Shown: positions 5,617 through 56,986 of the stretch, in pieces
Numbering within the stretch: position 1 is the stretch's first letter
Layout of the letters: each line of letters starts with the position of its first letter
From: a virus
Virus record (IMG/VR): IMGVR_UViG_3300033113_000110
Span: 797 to 64,796 of that record
Strand: one strand, 5' to 3'
DNA length: 64,000 nucleotides
Made by a program: the position numbers and the translations under genes
Notes under the pieces: generated by a model
The model's database searches: none
What the model saw: the letters and a program-made list of their open reading frames with translations, nothing else
What the model was told of the DNA's origin: nothing

Positions 5617-5653
5617 TTATCGATTCTTTTTATTGAGAAATTTAATAGATCTG

Positions 5654-5662
5654 TGGTAAAAT
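5654..5662 (+). promoter_or_regulatory. Extended -10 promoter for the lipoprotein gene
   Basis: TG-G-TAAAAT in an AT-rich gap; AAGGAG RBS before ATG 5731. Confidence 0.45.
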
Positions 5663-5730: not shown

Positions 5731-6708
5731 ATGCGTAATTTGTTTTCTTTTATGGCGGCTATAACTATATTAGTGGTCGGGGGTATATTAGGATGCTCTC
5801 CAGATATTGAGGAGGATGGGCCTGATGTGTCCCTCACCTCAGCATGGACAGATATTTATGAGGGTTACGATACAGCACCTGCGGCACCTCGATTTTATAG
5901 AAACGCGGCCGCTATGAAATGTATGACGTTTGAATTACCAGATATACAAACAAGTACACATGGAAATAGAGAAAATCTTAGACAAGCAGGCTTAAAACCG
6001 GGTATGGTTCAAGATCCTATGAAGTTTGTAACTGAATATCCGGAAAATTATTTTAAGGGGAAAAGGCGAACCCAATTTGTTGTTTCTTACAGTACGCCAG
6101 AAAGACGGTTTCACTATCGCGTTCATTATGGATGGGAAAGTCGAAGTGAGGCAACAGTGGGGCAACATCAGGGTGAGACATGGACGGCTATTCTTTACTT
6201 AAACTCTACACCAGGCGAAGAAGGACACGAAGTATTCATATATCCTGAATGCATTTATCATTCTCAAGATGATTACACTACTAAATGTAAGTATGGTAAC
6301 ACGAGTACATTTACTAATGGAAAGTGGGTGCGAAACAATCCTTTGAATATCAATAAACTCAAAAGGGATATTGATGCGCTACATGCGAAAAGTGCGAAAG
6401 ACCCTAAAAACCCGATAAACGATGAGGTGTTAATATTAGGTTACCTGAATGCACCTTTTCTTGGTCTCTACAATAGGCTGCATGATATGTTTATAAATGG
6501 TAGCGATCCCAGACTTAAGACAAAGCGGAAAGACGATGGGAAAGCATACGATAAAAACGACCTTTTTGACAGTAATGGCAACTCTATCAAGTTTACAGAT
6601 CGTTGGTCTGGAGGTGATTACATTGTCAAGAAGATTACTGGTATGAATATTATGTGCTTCAATACAGAGTTACCTATAGATTGGCAGCCAGATCCACGTA
6701 ATAAGTGA
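5731..6708 (+). CDS. Lipoprotein of unknown function (moron-like)
   Basis: Signal peptide MRNLFSFMAAITILVVGGILG-C with lipobox. Confidence 0.75.
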   Translation: MRNLFSFMAAITILVVGGILGCSPDIEEDGPDVSLTSAWTDIYEGYDTAPAAPRFYRNAAAMKCMTFELPDIQTSTHGNRENLRQAGLKPGMVQDPMKFVTEYPENYFKGKRRTQFVVSYSTPERRFHYRVHYGWESRSEATVGQHQGETWTAILYLNSTPGEEGHEVFIYPECIYHSQDDYTTKCKYGNTSTFTNGKWVRNNPLNINKLKRDIDALHAKSAKDPKNPINDEVLILGYLNAPFLGLYNRLHDMFINGSDPRLKTKRKDDGKAYDKNDLFDSNGNSIKFTDRWSGGDYIVKKITGMNIMCFNTELPIDWQPDPRNK

Positions 6709-6733
6709 AAAGGTGTATCTTATCTAATAGGTG

Positions 6734-6846
6734 GTGTTCTCTTACTCAAGGGGAGGGGTTGTAGCCCTCCCCTGGCAACTACCAATTGTTGAGTAGGGGA
6801 ATATGAGTAGGAGAATGTGTTTCGGCGCGTTCTCTTTTCTGTTTAA
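6734..6846 (+). ncRNA. Structured leader/attenuator, copy A (enclosing stem, hairpin, pseudoknot, terminator)
   Basis: TTCTCTTACTCAA/TTGAGTAGGGGAA, GGGGAGGG/CCCTCCCC, terminator GGAGAATGTGT-TTCG-GCGCGTTCTCT-TTTCT; homologous to 41048-41160. Confidence 0.8.
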
Positions 6847-6872
6847 GGGACTTTAGCTGATAGGATATATTT

Positions 6873-7226
6873 ATGAGCAATCAAAATTTTCAATTCACGG
6901 ATGCTGTTGAGGTGCTTTATCCGCCGACAGAGGATCGGCCGTTTAATCGTGGGACGTTTATGTTTCAGGGTATCTCAATGACTTGGGAGGATGCGCCGAC
7001 GACGGCTGAAGATGTTCGGGTACTTATTTCTGTGCCTGAGTTTGGTGGGCATGATTTTCTTGTTCGTGATTTAGATCCTTCAGAAAATTCTCTTGAGGAG
7101 TGGTATCATGGAATCGCTGGTGGACCTATTGCGATCCCTTCGGATGAACAAGTAAAAGTGACTTATCCGAATACGGATGCTACAATAGTAACGCTGAAAA
7201 TTGTAGGTTATTTCACGAATGGCTGA
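6873..7226 (+). CDS. Hypothetical structural protein
   Basis: 117 aa, first gene after leader A. Confidence 0.55.
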   Translation: MSNQNFQFTDAVEVLYPPTEDRPFNRGTFMFQGISMTWEDAPTTAEDVRVLISVPEFGGHDFLVRDLDPSENSLEEWYHGIAGGPIAIPSDEQVKVTYPNTDATIVTLKIVGYFTNG

Positions 7227-19534: not shown

Positions 19535-19763
19535 TGATTTGCTCAATATTGGTTCGATTAAAAGTTTCGCGTTACGTTTTTTTTATCATGAAGAAAGGTG
19601 CGTTTCAATTCCAAACTGGTTCGATTAGAAGAAAAATAAAGAAAAACGTATTCTCTTACTCGCTGCCGTTTCAATTCCAAACTGGTTCGATTAGAAGTCT
19701 ATGGAAGGACTTTCGCCCCCGTGTGTTCCGTATGTTTCAATTCCAAACTGGTTCGATTAGAAG
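19535..19763 (-). CRISPR. Cas-less CRISPR mini-array: three perfect 30-bp repeats, one degenerate trailer repeat, three spacers
   Basis: GTTTCAATTCCAAACTGGTTCGATTAGAAG at 19602, 19668, 19734; two 36-nt spacers; degenerate copy ending TGGTTCGATTAAAAG at 19564 gives a 37-nt spacer; an ATTGAAAC 3' end implies minus-strand transcription (type I-B/III-like). Confidence 0.95.
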
Positions 19764-27425: not shown

Positions 27426-30400
27426 ATGCGTCATCAGCGAAGCCTTACAGACGAAGAATTGGCGTTGCTTTCTGAACCTGTTGATCGTCCGACTGCAGAG
27501 TGGGACACATTTCAGGAGACGGGGCAATTGCGTCCAGTAGAGTCATCTCGACCGGAAGGACGAGTGATCGGTGGCCCTTGGGCTGCTTTTCATGGTGTTG
27601 AGGAACTTCCTGCTGATACCTCGCGGGAGGCTGATGATAATCCTTGGTATCCACGTTGGGGTGAGATAAGAAAGCATTTTTGGCCTTCTGCCGGTCGGTT
27701 GTATGATGAGGTGTTGGGGTATGTTTCACCTCAAATTTTATTTGATCGGTATGCTGGCTTTACAGAACAACAACGTGAAATAGGTTCTCTTGTTTCTGAT
27801 GCTGCTCGGTCTCTTTTTTCTTTTGATGTTTCACCACATTTTTTGACAGGTTCAGAGATTGGTACCCTTCCTACGACTCCCGAAGAAGACCTTTCATTTT
27901 ATCGTTCCCGCTTGGAAAGTCAATTTCCCCACACTGCTCCGTCTATGCCAGGTTATGATGATCCTAAAGTGGCGGAAGAATTGGAACTTCGGGAATTGAA
28001 GCGTAAGTACCCTTCACTTACTCAAATGAGTGAAGGGCTTCAGGCTCTAACACCGGTGCATCCTGAACGTGGATGGCAAGGCACACAGGCTCTTTCTCGT
28101 ATGGTTGAGCAAGAACCTTTTGAGTTTGCATTGGATATTGGGCTGTCGGCTACAGGTATCGGTGTGGGTGCTGCGGGTGTCCGTGGAACTGTTCGTGGTT
28201 TTCGCGTAGCTCGGCGTGCTGTGAGTCCATTAGAGGATATAGGAGATGCTCTTAGTGATATTGATGTGTTGACGGGTGAGTTATCGCCTGTAGGACGTTT
28301 ACGCCGTTCTACTGTGGATATAGAAGTTCAAGGGACTCGTTCTTGGGATCTTCAGAATTTATCGAGATTTGGTAGACGTAGAAGGGAATTGGGGACGGGT
28401 GTTCTTGTTTCGCCGACAGAGATCGTTACAGCTTCTCATACGCTTACTGGAAAAACGGATGCGGCTTTTCCGAATATAGAACGAATTACTGCGACAATAG
28501 CTGGTGGTCAACGTATCGATGTTGGAACAATTTCAGGGCTTTCGCCTGAAGCAGATATTGCGGTTTTGGATTTACCGGACTCTGTGGACGCTCCTTTATT
28601 GGATATTGCTGGCGATATTGATGACTTTGATGTGCTTTATGGTAAGTCTCGGATTGGCGAAGGTTATGATTCAGGGACTATTGGTAGGGAGATTGCTCGT
28701 GATCCGATAACGGGTGCGGCATTAAGAGAAACGAGCTATGTCGGTCGAGGTGGGTTGTCAGGGGCAGGTTTGGCTACTGAACGTGGTCAGCTGGCTGGTA
28801 TTTATTTAGGCACTTATGACGATGTGGGTATGTTTGCTGATGCTTCTACGGTTCAGCGTTTTCTGGAGGAAGATCGTCCTACGTTTGACGTTCAAGATTT
28901 TGATAGATCGTGGCATCGGCAACGCTTAATGGATCGTGCTTTGTATAATAGAGAGGGTGCTGAGATTGGATTAGGTGTTCGATCTTTGGATGCTCTTTCA
29001 ACTTTTGGTAGTCAATATGAACTTCAGTCTCGTGATCCTGATGATGATTGGCGTGGTTCGCTTTTGGGTATGCTCGAGGAGATGGAGCAATATAGACGTG
29101 TTGATGAGAGGCGATTGGCCTTAGATGATATACAATCGGCTATGTACGAGGGTTTAGGCTTCTCTCAAGATGCTACGCTTGCTGAAATGTTCCGTGCAGT
29201 TGAAAAAGACCCGGAATTGTTTTTCTATGTCGGTCGCCGCGGTGTTGATGTTGAGGATAGAGCCTATGTTGATCGTGGAGAGACGAAGCGGTATCGCCGT
29301 TGGGAAGAAGCTGGCTCTCCAGTAGATGAATTTGATTTTGAGAAAAGTAGTCGTCTGGTTCCGGCTGGTCAATTTCTTTCGGCTGAAGGTGTGGCTTCGC
29401 AGCACCCGCATGTTGTGAAGCATGGGGTATTCGGGTATGGAAACATTGAGGCTTTGGGGCAGCACTTGAGACAAGTTTTTGAAAAGGCTGGAGATGTTCC
29501 GCTCGATGATTATTCTTTACAGTTGGTGAGAGGTAGACCTTCTGAGATAGATGCTACAAAAATCGGCTATGGGGATGTAACGCGGAGATCGTCTGCTGAT
29601 TTTCTGCCTGGAGCTCAAGGGTTACTGGAATTTGATTTGCCTTCGTTGGATGTTTTACGGGATGTTTATTCTGAAGTGAGAGGGATGCGTTCACATCCGC
29701 GAATCGCTGAAGGACTTTCATGGATACCGGATCCGACGGTTACGAAAGATAGAGAAGGTCAATATATCCCTGTAGGTGAGAGACCGTCAACGGTAGTTGT
29801 TACGGAGCAGCTCTCTGATGAGATGGCGTTGTCTCGTATTCAGATTGCTCGGGGAACACCAGAAGGAATGGTTGTTGAACCGATGCTATTTCATGCCGAG
29901 GGACGGGCAAAGGCTGTTAAACGGAAGCCTATGCATGAGTGGACACATGAGGAATTAAGTAGGGAGACGCTTGTTGGGGAATCTTACTGGGTTCGGCAAG
30001 CTCGTGCTGAGATGTTTAGGAGACGTTTTGAATCTGCTAAGCAGCTCAGTGAACGCTTGGCAAATGCTCCGCCTGGTCAACGGATACCGGTGAGTTATGG
30101 GCGTGCTTTGCAGTCAGAAATTGCGCGAGACTTTGCTGCGGCTAAAAAACAGTCGGAGACTTGGGATTCAGAATACTCTTTTGAAACTGATATTGCCGCT
30201 GCTCATGCGGCTGAGGGGGCGCGGGATCATACGGAGGCTTTTAATCCACAGGACTATAAATCAGAATCTTGGGAGCCGGTAGGCGGTTATGTGGCTGACG
30301 ATGATAAAACAGGACAGTTTTATGAAGGTTGGGTCGATGAGCATGGTGATTTTCAGGATGTTTGGAAAGAAGGCGAGGAAATTGAGAAACAGGAATTGGA

Positions 30401-33400
30401 TGTCTTTTTGGAAGTGGAGGGTGATGATTATACTGAACCGGTGGCGGTCGGTTGGATTGATGAGTATGGAACCCATGATCCTGGTATGGATACTCCCGCG
30501 GGGATTGATGCAAATAAGTTGGCAGTTGATGTCGCTCGTGATGAACAGCGGCGTTTGTCGCCGGAGTCTCAATTGAAGATTTGGGACATGTTTTCGGGGT
30601 ATATTGAGAGACGGGAATATGAGCAGAAATTATTGACTGAGGGGGATCCTGAGTTAGAAGCAGAAATTATTGCTCGTATGGATGTCCGTGATCCTGATTG
30701 GCGTAGAAAGATGCGTGTTGCCTCGCGAGCGGATCGTTCTGTTCAGTCTCCTGGATTGCGTCCTTATTGGGAGCAGGCTGTTGCGGAACAACCGTCTTAT
30801 GGTGTTAGTGATGAGACGCTTTTTCACATGGATATTCCGCGTGAAGAATACTATCGATCTCAACGAAAGCATTGGCAAGTACGTGCCGATGAGCTTTGGT
30901 ATGGTGGGCAATTTGAGGAGTATTATCACCATGTAGAGCCGGTTCGGGAGCGGGCGTATCAATTGCATCGGCAGGCTCGTGATGCTGAATCTGCTGATCG
31001 TATTCAGATTACGGTAGGTGAAAAGGATACTTCGGCAGTGTATCCTGAGAGTGATGTTGATGCACAGAAATATCATTCGGCAGCTGCTATGGGAGTCTAT
31101 TTGCCTGATCCACCAGCAGCGCAATTGGCACAGACGGGAGTTGTTGATATTTCTATCCCGAGGCATGATCGAAGATTTCGTGATGAGACAAGTTTTGAAC
31201 GGGCACCGGATGATTTAGTGCTACGTGGGCAGAGACAGCAGCGTTATGGTGCTGAGCCGATGGATATTTTCATGGAGAATATCCTTTGGAAAGAAGCGGG
31301 TATCGAGGAAACGAAAAGAATCCCGGAAGTGAGTGGGGTAGTAGATGAATTTGTCTATGCATCGGAATTGGATGAAGATGTTGTTCGCTATAAGAAACCA
31401 TCGGGGGCGGTTGAGAGTTTTAATGTACCTGAAGCGGAGGCGTGGCATCGGAGTGATATAGAGGAAGGGCGGCTGGCACGTCCCCAGTATTCTTTTCGAG
31501 ATTCAGACACTGCTCCGCCTGTAGATGTTTTTGATGTTTATGGGTTAACAGAAGGAACGGAGTCTCTCACTTCTTTAGACTTGGCTACCTTGGGTTCGGT
31601 TCGACGGAATGTTTTGGAGAGATATACACCTCGGAGAGTTTGGGAAGCGGCACAGACGGCGGAGTATCGTCAAGCAGCGCGTAGACCTATCGGACAGGGT
31701 ATTGAGGAAGGCTTAACGGCTGATGAATTAAGGGACATCCGTTTGAGAGGTGAACAGATACGGGCTGAAAGGGCGTTTAATGAAGCAACGGCTGAAGGTG
31801 TTGCTTATGAGGCTGAAGCGCGTCGGACTGCTCAGGCTGGTGCTTATCGGATGCAAGAGGATCCGGCTGCAGCAGGAGCGCGTGAAGCGGTAGCAGAAGA
31901 ATTTAGACAGGAAAGGGAACGGGCGGATAAAGCTTTTCGTAAAGTGTGGGATGAAAGTAAGCGGGTTATTCGGGAATCTCCTGGAGAACTTCCCGAGGAA
32001 ATTGCTGATCCGCCGAGTAAGATCAAAAGACGCTATAATTTACACTCGTTGCCTTGGGAAGATGTTGAACCGCTTGACTTGGATACGCCTCGCGCGCGGT
32101 TGGCTGGCTTTGGCGGTATTGAGAGTGAACGGACTTATGGGCTTGAAATTGAACTTATTACAGATTTGACACGTGCGGATATGGAGCGTGAACTTGAGTG
32201 GCAGATGGCACAAGGGTTATCACTGAAGTATGATTTATCGTTGAGGACGGCACGTTCTGAAGTTGCTCTTGAACATCATCCCCCTGCTCATGTTCAGTTT
32301 TCTCGGATGCATCTGCCTGGTGAAATTCAACGTGCAGAAGCGGCGGATTATGAGAGGTACAGATCGCAGTTTACGGGGATGCCCGGTGAGGAAAGAATTC
32401 GTCCGGAAGATTTTGAGACTCGGTACGCACATGAATTGGTTTTCCCGGTAATGCAAGGTGAGGAAGGCTTAGAATTAATCGGTCAAACAGTCCGAAGGCT
32501 TCAGGAATTTGAGACTGAATTGAATACCTCGATGGGTATGCACGTTCATGTGGGTGCCCAGGATCTATCGAACTATGATTTGGTTGGGATTTGGGGAGCG
32601 TTTGCGGCACGTGAAGATGTGATTGATCTTATGCATGAACCGTCTCGGAGAGGTCAAGGTTCTGCTTATGCGGAGACTTTGGTGAGGGAGCGTGGTGAGG
32701 GTTCGTTTACTTCATTGGGTGAATTGCTACGTGCGGAGATGCGAGGTGGCGATCTTTCTCAAGCACAACCTGTCTCGGAATTGGAACGGATGCGTTCTCG
32801 ACTTGAAACTGCGCGTCGGCGGTCTTTGCTTTCATCGGAACGGCGAGAAGGTTTTTTGGATCAGGTAGGCTATGGGCATCGGTATCAGAAATTGAATCTT
32901 AGGGGATTTGAGCACCAGACGATCGAATATCGGCAACCGGCACCGACACTTGATGTTAGCGAGATTGAACACCATATCGGGTTTATCACGAACTTTGTGG
33001 ATGAGTTTTCAGGGAAGCCTTTAGAGTGGGCGATGAGACAGGATCCGAGATTACAACAGGAATATGCTGGTCTCGATTTGGTATTTGAAAGACCTGATGA
33101 AACTGGACAGTTGCTTCTATTCCCGGAAACTCGGACTGAACTTCATTCGGCAGATGAATTGACACCTTCGCAACGACAGGCAATGGAGCATACCTACGGT
33201 GCGGCGGCTGTGATTGCGGGTCCGGGTTCAGGTAAATCCAGAACATTGTTGGAGCGGTTGCGCTACTTGACTGAAACAATTGATGAGCAGTCTGGTAAGC
33301 CTATCGCAAGACCTGAAGATATTCTTACGCTCGTTTTTGGAAAAGAAGCAGAGAAGGATTTGATTGGACGGGGTGGAGAGTTTGGCGGCCCCTGGAACAT

Positions 33401-36400
33401 CTTTACGGTTGACGCTTTTGCGCGTGGCGTTGTTCGTGAGAATTTCGGGGAGCTTGGGTATGCACGGGCACCGGATATTTCTACGAGTACTTTTGAGGAT
33501 TGGCTCTCAGGGAAGCAGATACCAGAATTGGGGCTTTCGGGAGTTGGTGGTGACGGTGTTGAGGCATGGGCAAAACTTTATGAGGAAACTCGGCGTGGTT
33601 TTACTACCGGTAGAGAAGATTATTCGGCTTTACCTGAAGGGTTGCAAGGAGCGATCCGTGATTATCGACTTGAGAGATTTCATGCTGCGGAGATGGATTT
33701 TACTGATGCTATTTCGCAAGCCGGGTATCTTTTAGAGACGAATGAAGCGTTGCGTCAACGGTATCAAGATCGTTTTGAGTTTCTCCAGGTAGATGAATTT
33801 CAGGATATATCGCCGATCCAGTGGCGGTTTCTTCAGAATCTTTCTCCGAATCCTTGGGTTGTTGGTGATCTTGACCAAGGTATTATGTCCTTCCGTGGTG
33901 GCACTGGCACGGTGATGCGTGAGATGATTGAGTCTGGTGTCTCGTTGTATAATATCGAGGAAAATTTCCGCTCGACACCAGAGATTGTTACCGCGGCACA
34001 AGGGTTTATTCGATCGAATCTTGATAGACTTGATGTATCGCAATCAGCAGTGAAACCTTCGGGTGAACCGGTTATGATGGTTGGTGTTTCGCCTTTGACG
34101 ACTGAGCAGCAGGCGATTGCGCGTATTGCTGAACATGTAAGAGAAGGTGAAGAAACAGCGATTTTAACTGCAACGAATCGTGAAAAAGATGTTTTTGAAC
34201 ATGAGTTGGCTGCTGAGCTTCGGGGTCGCGGTTGGGAAGATCAGCAGATAAAAGACCATTTGACCTTTTCTACTATGCATTCTGCGAAGGGGCGGGAATG
34301 GCAGAATGTTTTCCTTCCGATTAATCTCCTTGAATCTGATTTTGGGAATACGCAGAGGCTTTTTACATTGCCTTCGCCTTATGCTCGGACTCCGTTTGAT
34401 TTTGCTGAACAGGAACGGGTCTTTTATGTCGCGATGACACGAGCACAGGAACGGCTTACAATTTTTGGGGATCCGCAGCATCCGTACTATGAACAGGTAA
34501 CTCGTGCGATAAGTGGTGTGGAGGAAGGTGCTGTGCCGTCTTATCTTGAACCACCGGATGATGTCCCGGAAGCTGCTGCGGCTTCAACACGAGGTGGTTT
34601 AGGCGGGTTCTTTGAACGTTTTGGTTCTGGACTTGATAGGTTTTTGCATGGCGATCCGACGCAGCGTACTCCGAGACGGGAAGGACGGCGGCGAGCTCGC
34701 ACTAAAACGGAATTGCATTCAGTGGATGAGCCTTATCGTGAAGGGTCTGATATTCCCGGTTTGGATCAGTTTCTCGATGTAGCAGATAGACATCCGGGTA
34801 TTTTTTATCGGTTTGAGAGTGATGATCCGTCAGGGTATGTTTCACAAGATTTAGCACAGACACATGCTATTTTGAGAGAACATGAAGGACAAGCAAATTT
34901 ACTTCCAGATTCTTTCATGGTGCCGGAGTTCGGGAAATATGATACGCTTATTCGTCCTGCTGGACAGGATCGCTGGAGTTTGTATGATCAGCAGCATGAG
35001 CAGGTAAATCGGGGAGAGAGGGAAGGAACTTTTGATCTTTATAGGGAAGAATATGATAGGGAAACGGATGATTTTGAATTTGTTTATTCGGGACCGGTGG
35101 AGATTGGTTATGTTGGGAGGCGTGGACTTTATGGGCATGTGGATCGTAGCTCTTTTGTAGAGGTGAGTCTAGAAGTGTTAGGGTTTCGGGCATCTCAAAC
35201 GCCTTTGCAACTTTCTGAAACTGACCGACATTTTTCTGTTCATTATGGAACATCGACTCCGTTTCGGCAGTACATAGGTGATCTGTCGGAGGGTGAAGAT
35301 GTTTTTATGTCGCATGGGGTACTGGCTCGGTTGCCAGTGAATTTGGATACTTCTGGAAGTTATGGTCAGCAACGTTATGCTGTTAATCCCAATTTAGGAG
35401 AGTTCATTGAAGCGGGTAACGTAAATTTGAATTGGTTGGCTCAGTCGATAGAGGCTCTCCCGCAGAATGTGAATGCTGATCGGATATGGGGTGATTATCT
35501 CGCGGGGCAACAAGGTTCGGAATTGCTTGGACTTGAGCGGGCTGTTGAGGGGAGTCGGCAATGGTTGGAAGGTAGACATCGTGGAGCGGTTCGTAGGGCG
35601 AGAAGTCGTCGAGTGCGCACTGATTTGCATAGCTTGGATGATTCAGATGATATTAATGCAAAGCTAAACGATATATGGGAAGATGAGCAAAACTTTTATG
35701 ATGCGAATTTTGCTTTAGATCCTCCGACTCCGGTTGAAGCTAACCCGGATATTTTGTTTGGGACTGATCCTACGCCTGAATCCGCTCCTGAATCTGTTCC
35801 TGATATTTTATTTGAATCTGAACTTGAGTCTTTTGCCTCTGATATTTCCGCTGCTCATAAGAGCGTGATGTCGGTAGAACTTGGACGTGGTTTAGGATTG
35901 GGGCAACGGCTTTCTCGGTGGTTCTCTGAAGCAGTGGAGGAGCGTGCTTGGGGTGGACTGACGCATTCAGCGGCGAATATTCTACAGGATGCTGCGACGA
36001 TTAATGTAGCGGCTTCGCTTGCAGTTGAAGGTGTTCGGACGGCGGTCGGGCATGATCTGAATATCGGTAGTCTGATCCATGCGGGTGCATCTACGATGGC
36101 GGCAATGGGGGCAAAGGCTGTTGATGCTCGTTTTGGGTCTCGTGGTGTGCTCCCGGAAGCTCGTGCTGATCTTGGTGCTTTGGCTGATGTTATTCAGGAT
36201 GTCCCGGAAGATGCCGCGGTGCATTTACAACGGATTTTCGAGGAAGCGGGTGCTGGTACTTCACGTTGGCGGCGAGGGAGTCTTGCTGATCAGTTAGAGC
36301 GTTATGACTGGAGTGGTCTTGAGTCGATGTTTGGTGAGTCAGGAGCGGCTTACCTCGATGAATTTGCTTACCAGACACGGCGGTTTGGACAACGAAGCTA

Positions 36401-39400
36401 TGGGACACAACGGAATTGGCAGGAATCATTACTTGATATTTATGCTGGTGGTATTCCACGCGCAACTCGGTATACTTATGATCCGAAATCTGGTGAAGTT
36501 GATTTTGAGATGAAGCGGCGGTGGACGCTCGATAGATTGCTCGAGGCGGGTTCGGATCGGTATCCACATTCACCGATAGGGGCGTGGCATGCTCGTCGTG
36601 AGCAGTTGAGAGAAGACCCGCGTCAAGATATGCTGCGGCATGTCTTTGGACCACTTCAAGGTGAAGATGTTAGACCACACGAGTTGTACATGTTGCTTCC
36701 CGAAGCACGCGGAATTGGACGCTTATTTGGGCGTTTCCATAGACGGCCAGATAATGATTGGGTCATGGAAGATATTGTTCGTGGTGTTGGGGCAACTCGA
36801 TGGGTGGATCGAATTGCTGAACGGAAGGAATTTAGGCGTGAACATCAGAGTATCCTTGAAGAACGGAGACGCTCGCCTGAGCTTTATCAGTGGCAAGACC
36901 CGGCACATTTCTATGGTAAGATTGCCGAGTCGCTCGGTATAGATACCTCGGATTTTGAAGGTTTTGGAGAACGTTTGGGGAGTCCATATTCTGAGTATGG
37001 TCGCTTTTTCTCACGATTGCCTAAAGCTGCGAAGTATCCGGTGATTGGTGGGGGTGCCGCCGTCGGTGGGAAACTTGGTTATGAGTTATTCTTCGGTGGA
37101 GACGATGATGAAGAATTAGTTCTTGATGATCCTGCTGGCTATTCGTTGTCTGCTCGGTATCCGATACTTGGTGCTGTTCAGCGGACACTTCCATATCGAC
37201 GGTTGCGAGCGAGAGCTGAAAATCTTCTCGATGATGTTTATGGTGAGGATTCTTTCCACAGTGAGATGTTGAAATCGATTGGTCTCGGAAAGAAAGGGAA
37301 TTTGCCGTGGGAAGTTAAGCAGACTTTTGTTCAGACTGGACAGATTCATGCTCTGGTTCAGTCGGGGATGCACGTATCGACTTTCTCGAATATCTTGTCT
37401 CGGTATCCGCTGCTTGCAGCACCAGCGGCTTTCTCGGCTGCGCGGGATGTGATCTCGCCGCCGGATGAAAGGGTGGTTGAACCTTCACAGTCTTTTTGGT
37501 CTAAATATCAATTGTCGCCTGATCCGTGGATACCGCGTTGGAATCCCGAACCTCCGACTTCTGGACAGATAAGTGCATTACAGTCGCAAGGGCTATTGGC
37601 TGATGATTATGAACTTGAGATTCCTGAACCGCCGTCGTGGGCTTGGTGGGATCCGGTTGAGAATTATCGTCGTGATGAGGAGGTTCGTGGACAGAAGTTG
37701 GCTACGGAAGGACAGGTGGATCTGCTTGGGTCTTTAGGGTTGTTGCCTGAAGGTTATGACCCTTCTGTTCATGAGCCTTCAGAGATTTCTTTGAATCGTG
37801 GACAACCTGGAATTCAGGATGTTTTGCCATGGTCGGTTTATGGGATGTTTGGTGTTCTGCCGGAGACAGGGTTTTCCTATTTTCGTTCGCGTGGTGATAT
37901 TCAGCGGAAGGATGAGGAAGGGAATTATAGGATTGATGGCTTTGAATTTGATGTTCAAGAGTCTCCGTTCCCTGGTTTCAATCCGTGGCTTGACCCACAT
38001 CCAGAGGGGATTTTGGGTGAAAGTCCCCCTGCTGAGGGGAGTTTTGATTGGGATTTTGGGCATGGATTGTTGGGTATTGGTGTCAATCAGTTTGCTGGAG
38101 TTGGATACGGTATTGGTGGTGGGATTCCTGATCCCGATGCGGAACTATTGGAACTCTATAAGGAACTTGGTATAGATCCGAAGCGGATTACAAGGGAAGA
38201 TGCAAGTAAGCTGATTGAGTATCAGAAGAAACAGCGGGAGGCTCAAGGGAATAAGGCGACGGAGAAACAGATTGTAGCATTGACGAAGATGTATCCGGGT
38301 AAAGATTTGTCTAAATTGACAAAAGAGCAAGCCTCGGAACTCTTTGATGCTTACGAACCGCCGCCTAAAATGGCATCGGATGCACAGCTCACGGCGTTGA
38401 AACGGATGTATCCTGATAAGGATTTGTCCGGGCTGACAATGGCACAAGCTTCAGAACTTTTTGATGCTTATGAACCGCCACCGAAGATGGCAACGGAAGT
38501 GCAGAAAGCGGCGTTGACTCGGATGTATCCCGATAAAGATTTGTCCGGACTGACGATGGTACAGGCTTCGGAACTTTTTGATACTTATGAACGTCCGGCA
38601 CGGAGTCAAGATGCAACGCAAGCTCAATTGGATTACTTAGATCGGCTGCGCGGTGGTGGTTTCGGTGATGTGATGCCTATTGAGGATGTTGATGAATCTG
38701 ATGGGCTAACACGTCAGGAAGTTTCAGCTTTGATAGATTTTGAGAAAGCGAAACGGCGTTCTGCTGAGATTTCTCGTGAGTCGGCTGGACCGACGATGGC
38801 TACTGAATCGCAACTTCGGTATCTTGGACAGTTGAACCCGGAACGATATGGCGGACTTTCTGGTGCTACTGAAGATGTGATGGGTATAGAAGATGTTACT
38901 TTCGATGATGGGATCACGGCTCTTGAAGCGAGAACGCTTTTTGATTATGAGGACGCGGTTCGGAAGTCGCGTGAGTCGGCTGGACCGGCAATGGCTTCGG
39001 ATGCACAATTACAGGTACTGCAACGGATGTTCCCGGATCAGTTCGGGGCATCGAGTGGTGTAGAAGTAGAAGAACCACCGATGATGGGAATCGAGGAGAT
39101 AACTTTCGATGATGGGATTACTCGGCGTGAAGCGGCAGCTCTGTTTGATTATGGTGAGGCTGTACAGAAATCTGCCGGGCCCCCAATGGCATCGGAAGCA
39201 CAAATTGCCGCACTTCAGCGTTATTTCCCGCAGATGTTTGAACCGACTGAACAGGCTGAGGAAGAACCGCTTGTACCGTTGGGGCAGATAGATTTTACAG
39301 ACGGGGTTACGCGTGAGGAAGCACGGCAAGCTTTTCGGCATGTGCCTGAAATGCCGCCGCCGATGGCAACACAGAGACAGATTGATCGTTTAGAAATGGA

Positions 39401-40577
39401 GTTTCCGCATGCTTTCAGGCATGTCGGACGGGTGGATCAGTATCTTCAGACGGGTCAATCCTATGGTGTTGTGAAGTCTTTGGAAGACATCTATGATGCG
39501 GATACTTTTACCGGTATGCTTTTTGATGCACCTACGGGGCAACTTTTCAAGGAGGATACGGTTCGACTTGGAGATTTCAACGCACCAGAGATTAAGCCGG
39601 ACCCGAGTAAGCCGCTCGAATATCAGGAACGTGAAGCGGCACGGGCACGCGAGGCACGAGATGTTTTTCGGTCTATGGTTCAGCGTTTTAATATCGGTCG
39701 AGATGTCGATCAGGAAGGCTATGTGATTCCGATTCAGTATAGGCATGATGCTCAGATGCTTGGTGGATTGGCTCGTGGGAAATATGGTCGGGTCTTAGGT
39801 GATGTTGATTTTGAAGGGGTTGATTATGAGCAGTTTATGATTCAACAGGGGATGGGGTCTGTCTATGGGGCGAGTGTCGAATGGGGTGCACGAGAGATTG
39901 ATCCACTTGAATTGTGGCGGCGGTCTCCGACTTTCTTAGAACAGTTCGGTGAGGGGACGACGGGTCTCCTATGGCAAATTCCTGAAGTGGCTATTGGCGG
40001 TGTTTTTCAAGGTATGGATCCGTTTGATGCTCTTACTGAGACTGTGGCACAGGTGCCGGGTGCTTTGAAGGATATGGCGATAGGACAGGCAAAGCAGACA
40101 TTGACTCAGGCAACGAAGGACTTTTTCAAGGAACGTTTCACGGATGAATTTACGCCGAATAATCTTTCATTCGCTCAGCGGTATATTGGGGATTTCGGTG
40201 GTGTCGGTGAGAAAGTAGGTGTCTTCAAAGATAAAGCGGCTGGCTTCCTTCAAAGTGGATGGGGCGCAGCTATCGCTCCGGCAGCTCTTGCGGCTGGCAC
40301 TGCTATCATTGGAGAACGTAGCTTGGATATGAACTATGCTGAGGTTATACCGACCCGGGAAGATCGGGTGAAGGCGTTTGATCATTATGTTTCGCAGCGG
40401 CAAGAATCTACTACGGGGGGGGCGATGAGTTCTGATGATGCTGCTTTGCGGGTGATAAAGAAGGCGTTGCGTGAAGTGCTTTCTGAATCAGGGCTTGGGT
40501 CTATGGATGATCTATCGACGAAACTGGATCGGAAATTACGGGAATCGGATAGGCGGGGGATTACGCGTCCGAGATAA
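27426..40577 (+). CDS. 4383-aa polyvalent protein in the tape-measure position: trypsin-like protease, amidoligase, UvrD helicase, helical repeats, SNase nuclease
   Basis: Protease about 28290-28870 (VTASH/DIAVL/GLSG); amidoligase about 32120-33010 (YGLEIE/GMHVHVG/RYQKLN/TIEYR); SF1A helicase about 33150-34500 (GPGSGKS/VDEFQD/GDLDQ/NFRS/TMHSAKGREW/ERVFYVAMTRA); SNase about 39460-39880 (IYDADT/VRLGDFNAPE/GKYGRVLG). Confidence 0.9.
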   Translation: MRHQRSLTDEELALLSEPVDRPTAEWDTFQETGQLRPVESSRPEGRVIGGPWAAFHGVEELPADTSREADDNPWYPRWGEIRKHFWPSAGRLYDEVLGYVSPQILFDRYAGFTEQQREIGSLVSDAARSLFSFDVSPHFLTGSEIGTLPTTPEEDLSFYRSRLESQFPHTAPSMPGYDDPKVAEELELRELKRKYPSLTQMSEGLQALTPVHPERGWQGTQALSRMVEQEPFEFALDIGLSATGIGVGAAGVRGTVRGFRVARRAVSPLEDIGDALSDIDVLTGELSPVGRLRRSTVDIEVQGTRSWDLQNLSRFGRRRRELGTGVLVSPTEIVTASHTLTGKTDAAFPNIERITATIAGGQRIDVGTISGLSPEADIAVLDLPDSVDAPLLDIAGDIDDFDVLYGKSRIGEGYDSGTIGREIARDPITGAALRETSYVGRGGLSGAGLATERGQLAGIYLGTYDDVGMFADASTVQRFLEEDRPTFDVQDFDRSWHRQRLMDRALYNREGAEIGLGVRSLDALSTFGSQYELQSRDPDDDWRGSLLGMLEEMEQYRRVDERRLALDDIQSAMYEGLGFSQDATLAEMFRAVEKDPELFFYVGRRGVDVEDRAYVDRGETKRYRRWEEAGSPVDEFDFEKSSRLVPAGQFLSAEGVASQHPHVVKHGVFGYGNIEALGQHLRQVFEKAGDVPLDDYSLQLVRGRPSEIDATKIGYGDVTRRSSADFLPGAQGLLEFDLPSLDVLRDVYSEVRGMRSHPRIAEGLSWIPDPTVTKDREGQYIPVGERPSTVVVTEQLSDEMALSRIQIARGTPEGMVVEPMLFHAEGRAKAVKRKPMHEWTHEELSRETLVGESYWVRQARAEMFRRRFESAKQLSERLANAPPGQRIPVSYGRALQSEIARDFAAAKKQSETWDSEYSFETDIAAAHAAEGARDHTEAFNPQDYKSESWEPVGGYVADDDKTGQFYEGWVDEHGDFQDVWKEGEEIEKQELDVFLEVEGDDYTEPVAVGWIDEYGTHDPGMDTPAGIDANKLAVDVARDEQRRLSPESQLKIWDMFSGYIERREYEQKLLTEGDPELEAEIIARMDVRDPDWRRKMRVASRADRSVQSPGLRPYWEQAVAEQPSYGVSDETLFHMDIPREEYYRSQRKHWQVRADELWYGGQFEEYYHHVEPVRERAYQLHRQARDAESADRIQITVGEKDTSAVYPESDVDAQKYHSAAAMGVYLPDPPAAQLAQTGVVDISIPRHDRRFRDETSFERAPDDLVLRGQRQQRYGAEPMDIFMENILWKEAGIEETKRIPEVSGVVDEFVYASELDEDVVRYKKPSGAVESFNVPEAEAWHRSDIEEGRLARPQYSFRDSDTAPPVDVFDVYGLTEGTESLTSLDLATLGSVRRNVLERYTPRRVWEAAQTAEYRQAARRPIGQGIEEGLTADELRDIRLRGEQIRAERAFNEATAEGVAYEAEARRTAQAGAYRMQEDPAAAGAREAVAEEFRQERERADKAFRKVWDESKRVIRESPGELPEEIADPPSKIKRRYNLHSLPWEDVEPLDLDTPRARLAGFGGIESERTYGLEIELITDLTRADMERELEWQMAQGLSLKYDLSLRTARSEVALEHHPPAHVQFSRMHLPGEIQRAEAADYERYRSQFTGMPGEERIRPEDFETRYAHELVFPVMQGEEGLELIGQTVRRLQEFETELNTSMGMHVHVGAQDLSNYDLVGIWGAFAAREDVIDLMHEPSRRGQGSAYAETLVRERGEGSFTSLGELLRAEMRGGDLSQAQPVSELERMRSRLETARRRSLLSSERREGFLDQVGYGHRYQKLNLRGFEHQTIEYRQPAPTLDVSEIEHHIGFITNFVDEFSGKPLEWAMRQDPRLQQEYAGLDLVFERPDETGQLLLFPETRTELHSADELTPSQRQAMEHTYGAAAVIAGPGSGKSRTLLERLRYLTETIDEQSGKPIARPEDILTLVFGKEAEKDLIGRGGEFGGPWNIFTVDAFARGVVRENFGELGYARAPDISTSTFEDWLSGKQIPELGLSGVGGDGVEAWAKLYEETRRGFTTGREDYSALPEGLQGAIRDYRLERFHAAEMDFTDAISQAGYLLETNEALRQRYQDRFEFLQVDEFQDISPIQWRFLQNLSPNPWVVGDLDQGIMSFRGGTGTVMREMIESGVSLYNIEENFRSTPEIVTAAQGFIRSNLDRLDVSQSAVKPSGEPVMMVGVSPLTTEQQAIARIAEHVREGEETAILTATNREKDVFEHELAAELRGRGWEDQQIKDHLTFSTMHSAKGREWQNVFLPINLLESDFGNTQRLFTLPSPYARTPFDFAEQERVFYVAMTRAQERLTIFGDPQHPYYEQVTRAISGVEEGAVPSYLEPPDDVPEAAAASTRGGLGGFFERFGSGLDRFLHGDPTQRTPRREGRRRARTKTELHSVDEPYREGSDIPGLDQFLDVADRHPGIFYRFESDDPSGYVSQDLAQTHAILREHEGQANLLPDSFMVPEFGKYDTLIRPAGQDRWSLYDQQHEQVNRGEREGTFDLYREEYDRETDDFEFVYSGPVEIGYVGRRGLYGHVDRSSFVEVSLEVLGFRASQTPLQLSETDRHFSVHYGTSTPFRQYIGDLSEGEDVFMSHGVLARLPVNLDTSGSYGQQRYAVNPNLGEFIEAGNVNLNWLAQSIEALPQNVNADRIWGDYLAGQQGSELLGLERAVEGSRQWLEGRHRGAVRRARSRRVRTDLHSLDDSDDINAKLNDIWEDEQNFYDANFALDPPTPVEANPDILFGTDPTPESAPESVPDILFESELESFASDISAAHKSVMSVELGRGLGLGQRLSRWFSEAVEERAWGGLTHSAANILQDAATINVAASLAVEGVRTAVGHDLNIGSLIHAGASTMAAMGAKAVDARFGSRGVLPEARADLGALADVIQDVPEDAAVHLQRIFEEAGAGTSRWRRGSLADQLERYDWSGLESMFGESGAAYLDEFAYQTRRFGQRSYGTQRNWQESLLDIYAGGIPRATRYTYDPKSGEVDFEMKRRWTLDRLLEAGSDRYPHSPIGAWHARREQLREDPRQDMLRHVFGPLQGEDVRPHELYMLLPEARGIGRLFGRFHRRPDNDWVMEDIVRGVGATRWVDRIAERKEFRREHQSILEERRRSPELYQWQDPAHFYGKIAESLGIDTSDFEGFGERLGSPYSEYGRFFSRLPKAAKYPVIGGGAAVGGKLGYELFFGGDDDEELVLDDPAGYSLSARYPILGAVQRTLPYRRLRARAENLLDDVYGEDSFHSEMLKSIGLGKKGNLPWEVKQTFVQTGQIHALVQSGMHVSTFSNILSRYPLLAAPAAFSAARDVISPPDERVVEPSQSFWSKYQLSPDPWIPRWNPEPPTSGQISALQSQGLLADDYELEIPEPPSWAWWDPVENYRRDEEVRGQKLATEGQVDLLGSLGLLPEGYDPSVHEPSEISLNRGQPGIQDVLPWSVYGMFGVLPETGFSYFRSRGDIQRKDEEGNYRIDGFEFDVQESPFPGFNPWLDPHPEGILGESPPAEGSFDWDFGHGLLGIGVNQFAGVGYGIGGGIPDPDAELLELYKELGIDPKRITREDASKLIEYQKKQREAQGNKATEKQIVALTKMYPGKDLSKLTKEQASELFDAYEPPPKMASDAQLTALKRMYPDKDLSGLTMAQASELFDAYEPPPKMATEVQKAALTRMYPDKDLSGLTMVQASELFDTYERPARSQDATQAQLDYLDRLRGGGFGDVMPIEDVDESDGLTRQEVSALIDFEKAKRRSAEISRESAGPTMATESQLRYLGQLNPERYGGLSGATEDVMGIEDVTFDDGITALEARTLFDYEDAVRKSRESAGPAMASDAQLQVLQRMFPDQFGASSGVEVEEPPMMGIEEITFDDGITRREAAALFDYGEAVQKSAGPPMASEAQIAALQRYFPQMFEPTEQAEEEPLVPLGQIDFTDGVTREEARQAFRHVPEMPPPMATQRQIDRLEMEFPHAFRHVGRVDQYLQTGQSYGVVKSLEDIYDADTFTGMLFDAPTGQLFKEDTVRLGDFNAPEIKPDPSKPLEYQEREAARAREARDVFRSMVQRFNIGRDVDQEGYVIPIQYRHDAQMLGGLARGKYGRVLGDVDFEGVDYEQFMIQQGMGSVYGASVEWGAREIDPLELWRRSPTFLEQFGEGTTGLLWQIPEVAIGGVFQGMDPFDALTETVAQVPGALKDMAIGQAKQTLTQATKDFFKERFTDEFTPNNLSFAQRYIGDFGGVGEKVGVFKDKAAGFLQSGWGAAIAPAALAAGTAIIGERSLDMNYAEVIPTREDRVKAFDHYVSQRQESTTGGAMSSDDAALRVIKKALREVLSESGLGSMDDLSTKLDRKLRESDRRGITRPR
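38250..38600 (+). repeat. Three tandem 117-bp (39-aa) repeats in the giant gene, with degenerate copies to about 39400
   Basis: MASDAQLTALKRMYPDKDLSGLTMAQASELFDAYEPPPK. Confidence 0.9.
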
Positions 40578-40709
40578 AGTGAAAAAACTGCACAGGAACG
40601 CTTTTAACGCTTTTCATTATTTTTTGTCTATGATACCCTTACTCATACTCGAAACTCGTTAAATTGACGTATAGGCGTTAGTAGAGTGAAATGAATTTGG
40701 GAGGTTGTT

Positions 40710-40829
40710 ATGATCTGGCGAAATAAATATCGTATTCCTCATCGATGGCGAAAACGATGGTATGATTTTTTTACTCGGATCGCTTGGTGGGGTTTTAATT
40801 TCGGAATCGAGGTGAAACATGAAGATTGA
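40710..40829 (+). CDS. 39-aa Trp/Arg-rich peptide (not in ORF track)
   Basis: MIWRNKYRIPHRWRKRWYDFFTRIAWWGFNFGIEVKHED; GGAGG RBS. Confidence 0.55.
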   Translation: MIWRNKYRIPHRWRKRWYDFFTRIAWWGFNFGIEVKHED

Positions 40830-41025
40830 TACGGATGATCCGAGAATCCTTTTAGAGAATGGTTTCTGTGAGATGATCCGGCATATTCAGGATGTTGTTG
40901 AGAATCATAGAGTCTTCCCGGCTGAGATCACTTTGCCTGTGGTCGAGGGGAATTCTCAGAACTTGCAGCTTACTTTGAAGATGCAATGGTCTCCAAAAGT
41001 GGTTTCTATTGAGGAAAGTTCGTGA
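40819..41025 (+). CDS. Hypothetical protein
   Basis: 68 aa, GAGG RBS. Confidence 0.5.
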   Translation: MKIDTDDPRILLENGFCEMIRHIQDVVENHRVFPAEITLPVVEGNSQNLQLTLKMQWSPKVVSIEESS

Positions 41026-41047
41026 AGAATTAGCATATTAATAAGTA

Positions 41048-41160
41048 GTATTCTTTTACTCAGGGGTGGGACTGGTAGTTCTACCTTAGCATCTACCAAG
41101 TGTTGAGTAAGGGAATTATGAGTAAGAGAACGTGCTTTGGCGCGTTCTCTTTTCTGTTTA
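41048..41160 (+). ncRNA. Structured leader/attenuator, copy B
   Basis: Homologue of 6734-6846 with compensatory and G-U changes; loop TGGTAG pairs with CTACCA; terminator AGAGAACGTGC-TTTG-GCGCGTTCTCT-TTTCT. Confidence 0.85.
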
Positions 41161-41173
41161 AGGAGGTTTTATT

Positions 41174-41725
41174 TTGAATGGTAATAAACGGAAGGGTCGA
41201 AAAGGGAAGAAATTTACGAAGCAAATCGCAAATCAGATTGCTCATTTTCTTCATGATGGGAAAACGGAAGACGAGATCCGTGCGGAATTAGAGCTTAATA
41301 ATAATGATTTCTGGAAGTGGACCGCGCTTGCTGTCTTTGGGTTGCCGGATACGCGGACACCTGAAGAAGAAATACTTCGGGATGCTATCTTTGATGTGAT
41401 GCTTGGTGAAACATTGCTGAAAAGGGTACTTGAAGTTTCAACTGATACAACAGAGAAGCGGATCATGAAGGTTACGACGCTTTTGAATCTTACGGGTCCC
41501 GAGGCTGCGGCTTTGGAACGGAAAGGTAATAAAAGGTTTGTCGAGGAATTTGAAGGCTCTGCTGTCAATTTGAAAGTGGAGGAAACGATTGAGACGATTC
41601 CGCCAGCTATATCGCTTTTAGAGAAACTTCTGAAATTGGCTGAAGGGAATGTCTCGGTTCAGAATGCTTTGAAACAACTGACACCGTTTAATCCTATTGA
41701 TCCTGAACTCGAGGATGAGGTGTAG
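41174..41725 (+). CDS. terS: Terminase small subunit (probable)
   Basis: N-terminal basic/HTH segment (KKFTKQIANQIAHFLHDGKTEDEIRAEL), upstream of terL; TTG start after AGGAGG. Confidence 0.6.
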   Translation: MNGNKRKGRKGKKFTKQIANQIAHFLHDGKTEDEIRAELELNNNDFWKWTALAVFGLPDTRTPEEEILRDAIFDVMLGETLLKRVLEVSTDTTEKRIMKVTTLLNLTGPEAAALERKGNKRFVEEFEGSAVNLKVEETIETIPPAISLLEKLLKLAEGNVSVQNALKQLTPFNPIDPELEDEV

Positions 41726-42383
41726 TTTTTTTTCTTTTTGCTTTTGATATTTTGCGTTTATGTTCGGCTGATTTGGGTTTTCCTTTTAGTGCTTTGGATA
41801 GTTTTTCGCGTGTTTCTTTGCTGAGTTTCTTTCCATAATTTGGTGCTTTCTCACCTTTTAAGGAATTGGATATTTTTTCGCGTTGTTCTTTGGGCATAGT
41901 TTTTCCATAGTTTGGATTGTCTTTGCCTGTGAGTTTTCCTTTTCTGTTTTTGGACATTTTTTGGATGCGTTCTTTGCTGTGTTTTCTGCCCTTTAGAGAT
42001 TGTGCTATTTTTGCTCTATGTTCGGGGCTGTGTGGACCTCGTTTTTTACCTGTATTTCCTTTGGATATGTTTTTGGAAGCTTCAGGAGAGTATTTAGTAT
42101 GTGTTTCTCCGCCAATTGTTAAGTTGTATCCATTAGGAGCGAGTGTTCTTAGCTTAGCAATATACCATTGTTCTACTGCATCTAATGCTTGAGGTGAAAT
42201 GTGAGGGTATTTGATTATTTGGACATTAAAGTTCTTTTTTCCATGTTTTTTTATGGCTTTGGCTATGTATGTTGAACCACTGTATCCAGCTAAATGATTG
42301 GCAATTCGTTTTTTTAGTTTGATACTTTGTCCAACATATTGTTTATTGTTTATACGGTTTGTTAGAATATAAATACCTCTCAT
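41694..42383 (-). CDS. Free-standing GIY-YIG homing endonuclease with NUMOD3 repeats
   Basis: GIYILTNRINNKQYVGQS...R...E; HSPEHRAKIAQSLKG, LSKETREKLSKALKG; own TATAAT and AAGGAG. Confidence 0.92.
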   Translation of the reverse strand: MRGIYILTNRINNKQYVGQSIKLKKRIANHLAGYSGSTYIAKAIKKHGKKNFNVQIIKYPHISPQALDAVEQWYIAKLRTLAPNGYNLTIGGETHTKYSPEASKNISKGNTGKKRGPHSPEHRAKIAQSLKGRKHSKERIQKMSKNRKGKLTGKDNPNYGKTMPKEQREKISNSLKGEKAPNYGKKLSKETREKLSKALKGKPKSAEHKRKISKAKRKKTTPHPRVQDQ

Positions 42384-56874: not shown

Positions 56875-56986
56875 TTGTTTTAATAGAAAATTTGTGATAT
56901 AATAATGTTCTCACTCTGGTGGGGCTTTGGCGAGCCTCACCGTCTACGCCAATAGGGAGTGAGAATCTTTTCTGAGTGAGGATACC
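56875..56986 (+). ncRNA. Promoter plus pseudoknotted leader, copy C, upstream of the second GIY-YIG gene
   Basis: TTGTTT-17-TATAAT with TGn; GTTCTCACTCT/GGAGTGAGAAT, GGTGGGGCT/AGCCTCACC, loop TTGGCG pairs with CGCCAA; a second GAGTGAGGA overlaps the SD. Confidence 0.8.

Follow-up and report, generated by a model that had tools for sequence, protein, structure and literature searches.

Introduction

The timing of late gene expression in phages is usually credited to proteins, that is, sigma factors, activators and the Q and N antiterminators. In lambda, Q is loaded at a DNA site of the promoter, and a conserved RNA fold is not required in the leader. To our knowledge, very few systems of late control are RNA-only or RNA-centred, the put RNAs of HK022 being one example. 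Transcriptional riboswitches and protein-dependent attenuators, such as the RAT-terminator systems of the Bgl/Sac type, use terminator/antiterminator expression platforms. The purine riboswitch is a three-way junction in which loops L2 and L3 kiss and conserved junction strands of 3-8 nt form the purine pocket.

The closest described phage systems are of several kinds. The putL and putR sequences of HK022 are cis-acting phage RNAs of ~70 nt with two stem-loops, located just downstream of the early promoters; put RNA binds the polymerase and acts processively on terminators up to 10 kb away without a dedicated protein (PMC9378689). The lambda PR' promoter is reported to be constantly active, with its transcripts terminated just downstream (PMC7547250). 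In T4-type phages, PeSLs are ~100-bp repeated intergenic cassettes with a stem-loop terminator and an early promoter, which adjoin orphan genes and mark insertion/deletion borders between related phages (PMC2839356).

In phages of uncultured sponge symbionts, gene regulation is almost uncharted. The window analysed here is a stretch of 64,000 nt, bases 797-64796 of a 68,448-nt IMG/VR virus record that is estimated to be 64% complete. The sequencing runs listed as carrying the DNA of the window comprised one sponge metagenome DNA run, which may be from the source sample, and no RNA run. We describe element A, a 113-base stretch of this window, which is one copy among seven of a folded leader RNA.

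Element A and Its Surroundings

Element A is flanked 5' by an orphan gene of 325 aa (5731-6708) and 3' by a run of plus-strand genes. This run continues to an SNase-like nuclease (12562-13152), a phage lysozyme (14217-14825) and a terminator at 15762-15789. The genes directly 3' of A gave no matches in the Pfam/family search, and two of the genes 3' of A gave weak tail-fibre/baseplate structural leads only, with TM <0.5, in the protein-atlas look-up. The proposal, made from the letters alone, that A governs a tail/toxin/lysis operon is therefore kept for lysis; the tail part has weak structural leads only and the toxin part was not borne out. The protein search found no homologues of the 444-aa and 325-aa neighbours of A, which leaves no route from them to orthologous sites. 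A promoter-like site at 5633-5662 (TTGAGA-18-TAAAAT, with TG upstream) lies 5' of the orphan 325-aa gene, which ends just before A. Together with A, this gene and its promoter-like site could make up a unit that is complete in itself, with a terminator at its end.

The features of the element and the first gene behind it are as follows.

6737-6748, plus strand: S1, the 5' strand of closing helix P1, TTCTCTTACTCA; complementary to S2 and S3 and paired in all copies
6749-6773, plus strand: P2 hairpin of 9 bp (6749-6757 with 6765-6773) with a 7-nt loop, L2 (6758-6764); 100% of cells paired
6759-6764 with 6779-6784, plus strand: kissing contact between L2 and L3, with one U-C mismatch (U6760/C6783)
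6775-6789, plus strand: P3 hairpin of 4 bp (6775-6778 with 6786-6789) with a 7-nt loop, L3, CTACCAA (6779-6785); 100% paired
6790-6801, plus strand: S2, which closes P1 on the 3' side and is the first of the two copies of the repeated strand, TGAGTAGGGGAA; duplex with S1 of -14.7 kcal/mol
6804-6815, plus strand: S3, second copy of the repeated strand and alternative partner of S1, TGAGTAGGAGAA; duplex with S1 of -15.6 kcal/mol
6809-6846, plus strand: intrinsic terminator, with stem 6809-6836, loop 6821-6824 and U-rich tract TTCTGTTTAA to 6846
6873-7226, plus strand: first gene 3' of A, 117 aa, syntenic with the genes after copy C

From its letters, element A is a predicted three-way junction, made of P1 (S1:S2), P2 and P3, in which the loops of P2 and P3 are able to kiss. 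The sequence-only reading had already proposed that S1 pairs alternatively with S2 or S3, and all the strands were located where it had placed them: S1:S2 and S1:S3 are each paired at 12/12 positions, the former with three G-U pairs and the latter with one. The span of 6734-6846 that it gave to the element does hold these strands, but S1 begins at 6737 and a start at 6734 only adds GTG. Its helix between 6759-6764 and 6779-6784 is present, with the single mismatch it had noted (U6760 opposite C6783). This helix had been called a pseudoknot; since its 3' strand is itself the loop of hairpin P3, the contact is better described as a loop-loop kiss within a three-way junction.

S3 starts 2 nt after the junction. 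The earlier view that this copy forms the 5' arm of the terminator agrees with the coordinates, as that arm has its base in the 3' half of S3 (6810-6815), within stem 6809-6836, and the same overlap is seen in all six terminator copies. At 6809-6846, a G+C-containing hairpin directly precedes a U-rich tract on the transcribed strand, as expected of an intrinsic terminator. In the terminator scan, the stem of A had 12 pairs (4 G-C) and a loop of 4, and 6809-6836 was among the two best plus-strand sites of the first 16.5 kb. The fold of 6709-6872 has an energy of -67.7 kcal/mol, compared to -42.9 +/- 3.8 in shuffles (z = -6.48). With <=1 mismatch allowed, 5 occurrences of the S2/S3 motif were counted in the window, where 0.6 would be expected, and no shuffle reached this count.

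Seven Copies from Three Related Phages

Copies A, B and G are in the window, and C, D, E and F are on phage contigs binned into two sponge Poribacteria genomes. Pattern scans of metagenomes and genomes gave 150 loci, with an S1 partner and a terminator together only in L270; the species-genome pattern scan yielded one true homologue, whose 7.7-kb contig is binned as 'Candidatus Poribacteria bacterium SB0668_bin_37'. With A and B as the basis of a covariance model, C, D and E were retrieved in the SB0668_bin_37 genome bin (E 1e-24 to 1e-30), and the refined model retrieved F (E 1e-23) in a second genome bin of the same family. With a domain-only model and filters off, G ranked third in the window (E = 7.7e-4). 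The other copies in the window are laid out as follows.

41044-41167, plus strand: copy B, 89% identical to A; S1 41051-41062, S2 41104-41115, S3 41119-41130, then the terminator
56908-56982, plus strand: copy G, divergent; S1' 56908-56916, S2' 56957-56965, S3' 56974-82, no terminator
56918-56926 with 56933-56941, plus strand: P2' of copy G, whose loop L2' (56927-56932) kisses 56947-56952
56943-56946 with 56953-56956, plus strand: P3', hairpin of copy G

All seven copies lie on the coding strand of the adjoining genes. Only three phages, related to one another, are represented, and with six of the copies closely related the set holds few independent events. D and E can be assigned to one phage, since both contigs are collinear with the contig carrying F.

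The genes behind the copies are diverse. The terminator of B is followed by AAGGAGG and then by a conserved 183-aa gene with a TTG start, and this gene precedes a GIY-YIG gene and the large terminase subunit; upstream, the neighbours of B are small orphan ORFs after a giant gene (27426-40577). Copy C is 5' of orthologues of the genes downstream of A (38-93% amino-acid identity). Behind copy D are a gene of 87 aa, a head-morphogenesis (portal-like) gene and a protease fusion, in this order, and copies E and F are each 5' of a glycosyltransferase-like gene.

Two contigs of the Poribacteria bin (L285 1-145 and L283 7614-7823) begin or end 20-85 nt from a copy, and the repeat probably breaks the assembly of this phage. 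The phage contigs may have been binned with the host by chance or through co-abundance.

No further copy was found in ~400 other genomes of the phylum, order and family to which the two bins belong. Searches of IMG/VR with five patterns gave chance matches only, which, as inspection of L001, L286 and L287 showed, fell in coding sequence or in simple tandem repeats, and blastn against the phage collection gave no match to the element. Rfam 15 gave no match at the gathering score for the whole window and none at E up to 10 for 6500-7000. No description of such an element was found in titles and abstracts of the literature on sponges, bacteriophages and riboswitches. As judged from these searches, the element is outside every described RNA family.

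Two weak matches of the covariance models were set aside. A chromosomal match in genome G037 (L282 1501-1594, E about 0.006 genome-wide) has no P2, U-tract or S-strand pairing, and the absence of P2 and of the U-tract makes it probably a chance match; it shares a 17-nt stretch identical to the top of the terminator of B. The other, L288 12824-12933, was rejected for lack of S-strand pairing.

Conservation and Covariation of the Fold

Covariation was evaluated on the six-copy alignment (A-F), to which G was added by hand afterwards. In the six copies, 97% of the P1 (S1:S2) cells are paired, with one compensatory position. P2 is fully paired and has compensatory changes at 5/9 positions, or 7/9 with G, and P3, also fully paired, has one compensatory position, or 3/4 with G. 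The terminator stem is paired in 100% of cells in the six copies, with one compensatory pair (G-C to A-U) and hairpin energies of -14.3 to -19.0 kcal/mol. The covariation score was 0.345, compared to 0.241 +/- 0.019 in shuffles (0/500 as high) and <=0.17 in slid controls, and RNAalifold independently predicted P1, P2, P3 and the terminator.

The kissing helix is more variable. It is complete (6/6) in B, C and G, each of which has its own sequence there, 5/6 in A, and degenerate in D, E and F (4/6, 2/6 and 3/6, respectively); with G included, compensatory changes are seen at 3/6 positions.

G-U pairs occupy 13/72 cells of P1 and 10/54 cells of P2. As these 23 pairs would be A-C mismatches on the opposite strand, the fold is a feature of the RNA of the coding strand. 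On this comparative basis, we consider it solid that the element is a real RNA family with a conserved fold, and that a conserved, covarying domain (P1, P2 and P3) that could serve as a sensor lies upstream of the terminator.

The fold resembles the purine riboswitch in its P1-closed junction and in its two hairpins with 7-nt loops that pair with each other. It differs in its junction strands, which are 0-2 nt, and gave no Rfam match, purine family included, at E up to 10. The unpaired junction nucleotides of G have nothing in common with those of A-F, so no conserved ligand pocket is visible. Comparison of A-G and a scan of 66 ORFs revealed neither a known effector nor conserved unpaired pocket nucleotides of the riboswitch kind.

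The Alternative Pairings of S1

S1 is able to pair with both S2 and S3 in every copy. In the six terminator copies, the S1:S3 cells are 98.6% paired and S3 overlaps the 5' arm of the terminator, so that S1:S3 is an alternative pairing that excludes the terminator hairpin. The attenuator-like architecture that had been recognized in A alone is therefore conserved, with S1:S2 and S1:S3 almost fully paired and a sensor domain that covaries. The 5' half of S3 (TGAGTA) is mostly outside the terminator stem and is nevertheless conserved, and in G an identical 2-nt deletion is found in all three S strands. Compensatory evidence for S1:S3 itself is limited to copy F, where an A-U to U-A change at position 19/79 is the sole event; 78/500 shuffles do as well.

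S1:S3 equals S1:S2 in stability or exceeds it, by up to 1.6 kcal/mol, in each of the six terminator copies. When successive prefixes of A, B, C, D and F were folded, S1 moved from S2 to S3 once S3 had emerged and returned to S2 with the 3' arm of the terminator; in copy E, no switch of S1 was seen at any stage. Once the 3' arm has been made, equilibrium favours S1:S2 together with the terminator over S1:S3, by roughly 10 kcal/mol. Because the terminator state is so much more stable, read-through needs a stabilising factor or a kinetic effect such as slow strand exchange.

Our best reading, to which we give a probability of about 0.52, is that the terminator of element A is conditional, with S1 toggling between its partners S2 and S3. 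When S1 pairs with S2, S3 would be left free, the terminator hairpin would form and RNA polymerase would stop before the gene at 6873. When S1 pairs with S3, the 5' arm of the terminator would be occupied and S2 looped out, and the polymerase would read into the downstream genes, which after A end with the lysis genes. The read-through state would be brought about by a factor that holds S1:S3 (or holds S2), or by slow strand exchange. The operation of the toggle, its trigger and its polarity, for which the sequence-only reading had put late expression OFF with the pseudoknot domain folded, are the parts of this reading that we infer. The trigger is probably a protein or RNA specific to the phage cycle that recognizes the nearly invariant S strands; a small-molecule ligand is a less likely trigger, and purely kinetic co-transcriptional folding the least likely of all. 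Pfam scans of the 66 ORFs of the window detected no known RNA-binding, antiterminator or late-transcription-regulator family.

As in riboswitches and attenuators, the intrinsic terminator comes after a structured 5' domain and has an alternative partner for one of its arms. Unlike in the usual 2:3 antiterminator, the choice lies with the 5' strand of the closing helix, whose complement is present twice in tandem. At ~110 nt, the element lends itself to direct in vitro testing.

Since the module precedes terminase genes (B), head genes (D), genes like those after A (C) and glycosyltransferase-like genes (E and F), one signal could co-ordinate several late gene blocks. If the element does switch, it would be a multi-copy RNA module capable of such co-ordination, with an unusual wiring in which a single strand picks between tandem partner copies and with a sensor reused for translational control. 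The most far-reaching form of this proposal is a new class of phage riboregulator, in which a kissing-loop sensor and a duplicated 'decoy' strand would control terminators before the head, packaging and lysis blocks and, with opposite polarity, the ribosome-binding site of an endonuclease gene, one phage-made signal flipping the whole late programme at the RNA level. We regard it as tentative and, in this complete form, rather doubtful.

Copy G, a Putative Sensor with Another Platform

In G, which has no terminator, S3' holds the Shine-Dalgarno sequence GAGGA of a GIY-YIG homing-endonuclease gene (56987-57751, plus strand), and an extended -10 promoter, TGaTATAAT, is located upstream (window 56895-56990). 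The element thus resembles riboswitches and attenuators also in the reuse of its sensor domain with a ribosome-binding-site platform. From the alignment, the putative sensor is common to two output platforms, the terminator in A-F and the Shine-Dalgarno sequence in G. Since S1:S2 pairing in G would free the ribosome-binding site, the polarity of G would be opposite to that of A-F.

The likely transcription start of G is 1-3 nt inside S1', which would cut P1' to about 7 bp. The GIY-YIG gene at 56987-57751 runs opposite to the surrounding minus-strand genes. Paralogous GIY-YIG genes are found in the window at 41694-42383 (minus strand) and 56987-57751 (plus strand), with 40-43% identity to a gene on a related phage contig (L292 5511-6470, minus strand); among them, only the copy at 56987 has the leader fold.

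Promoters and Probably Passable Terminators

Copy D is preceded by TTGACA-18-TATACT and 11 nt, and followed by AAGGAG, 8 nt and the ATG of the 87-aa gene. This promoter (L283 7739-7785, minus strand) has 11/12 consensus positions and is the sole clear promoter beside any terminator copy. It is the only one seen ahead of the head genes on its contig, and the terminator is located ~100 nt past the likely start site. These head genes can be made only if the polymerase gets past the terminator of D, which stands between them and this promoter. Copy C has the same TATACT -10 box at the same distance, the -35 region being past the contig end. Between the U-tract and the start codon there is no space for a promoter in B and D. 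Promoter scores are <=8/12 in A, B, E and F; these copies follow ORFs and, without convincing promoters, could equally be the 3' ends of the genes before them. A promoter-proximal position is thus seen in D and G only, and probably in C.

The layout of D is like that of lambda PR'-tR', with a strong promoter, a short leader, an immediate terminator and late structural genes behind it; in contrast to lambda, the fold recurs inside operons, away from promoters. The element has in common with put that it is a cis-acting phage RNA with similar copies within a genome (two in the case of put). It differs in being a three-way junction interlocked with its own terminator, most copies of which are not promoter-proximal, and it is not a two-stem-loop RNA of ~70 nt by early promoters.

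Other Explanations of the Element

The alternative that survives best, which we nevertheless hold to be unlikely, is that the element is an unconditional, mobile terminator or insulator cassette and that the late polymerase is made termination-resistant elsewhere, in the manner of Q, N or put. It would stop stray transcription at module borders and stabilise the 3' end of the upstream mRNA, the likeness of S3 to S2 having no switching role. The copies have sharp borders and adjoin genes without homologues, and the terminator state is strongly favoured at equilibrium, as this explanation expects. The site of B fits it as well. Compared to relatives, B belongs to a ~600-nt insertion (window 40578-41173) consisting of unrelated small ORFs and the copy itself. 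In five relatives (L127, L128, L288, L289 and L290, with 58-75% identity in the large terminase subunit) the site is closed, the flanking genes being <=11 nt apart or overlapping, and no element was found in the ~20 kb around the terminase gene of each. Between the giant gene and the 183-aa gene, three relatives have a 77-78-aa gene and two have nothing.

Such behaviour is like that of the PeSLs (PMC2839356): the element, too, is a repeated intergenic cassette beside orphan genes (the flanks of A) that is present or absent between relatives (the site of B), and its mobility is presumed from this. As for a consensus promoter inside the cassette, D scores 11/12, G has TGaTATAAT, C has a TATACT -10 box with the -35 past the contig end, and A, B, E and F reach <=8/12. 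The promoter, short leader and terminator of D also resemble lambda PR'-tR', with its constantly active promoter and the stop just downstream (PMC7547250). However, a PeSL combines an early promoter with a simple stem-loop, and the element comprises an RNA domain of several covarying helices as well as a switch strand in duplicate. A fixed terminator leaves unexplained the 70-nt covarying three-way junction beside every terminator, the complementarity of S1 to two strands, including the coordinated 2-nt deletion in G, and the presence of the same domain with a ribosome-binding site and without a terminator in G. Moreover, Pfam recognized no antiterminator gene among the 66 ORFs of the window. 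If the element proves to be a fixed terminator cassette, it would still be of use for recognizing module borders and recombination among these phages.

A ribosome could instead do the switching, through a short ORF that runs from an AUG at the start of S3 through the terminator with S2 as its Shine-Dalgarno sequence. An initiating ribosome would cover the 5' arm of the terminator and cause read-through, and P1 would hide the ribosome-binding site. ORFs of 17-20 codons do start with AUG in A, B and D; the stop codon overlaps the TTG of the next gene in B and is located just past the ATG in D, and in E and F the frame is open into the next gene. S2 is also purine-rich (GGGG, AGGGA, GAGG) and 3-5 nt upstream of the AUG, a short spacing for this purpose. 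The start codon is, however, AUG in four copies only, being GUG in C and AAG in F, and G has no such ORF, so that a conserved translatable ORF of the trp or pyrBI leader-peptide type is not present. Conservation of the peptide follows automatically from that of the RNA strands, and the complementarity of S3 to S1 is left unexplained. We consider coupling to a ribosome very unlikely.

A slightly smaller chance still is given to a trans-acting small RNA gene, of which the terminated RNA of ~115 nt would be the product, either transcribed from a promoter of its own or released by cleavage of the upstream mRNA. Small RNAs are commonly present in several similar copies per genome, and the number of copies found here fits with that. 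The -10 box of the consensus promoter of D recurs in C, and both copies end with a terminator, which is the classic layout of a small-RNA gene. On the other hand, B and D are followed, 7-8 nt past a Shine-Dalgarno sequence, by genes without another visible promoter, G has no terminator, and A, B, E and F have no good promoters. DNA-level sites for a regulator, terminase or recombinase (one inverted and two direct 12-mers) have a negligible probability, for even if the 12-mer sequences are conserved across copies and B adjoins terminase genes, the complementarity is restricted to one strand by the 23 G-U pairs of P1 and P2, pairing is kept in P2, P3 and the loop contact while their sequences vary, and the several copies per genome are always on the coding strand.

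A CRISPR Spacer Similar to S1

The window also has a cas-less CRISPR mini-array, the first spacer of which (19632-19667) resembles S1 and its 5' flank, with 15/15 matches to copy C, 18/20 to D and 13/14 to A. The match ends at the end of S1, and the crRNA would be complementary to the leader RNA. The simplest reading of these alignments is that the spacer was taken from the equivalent element of a related phage. A phage-borne spacer similar to S1 suggests that related phages may target or mimic the element.
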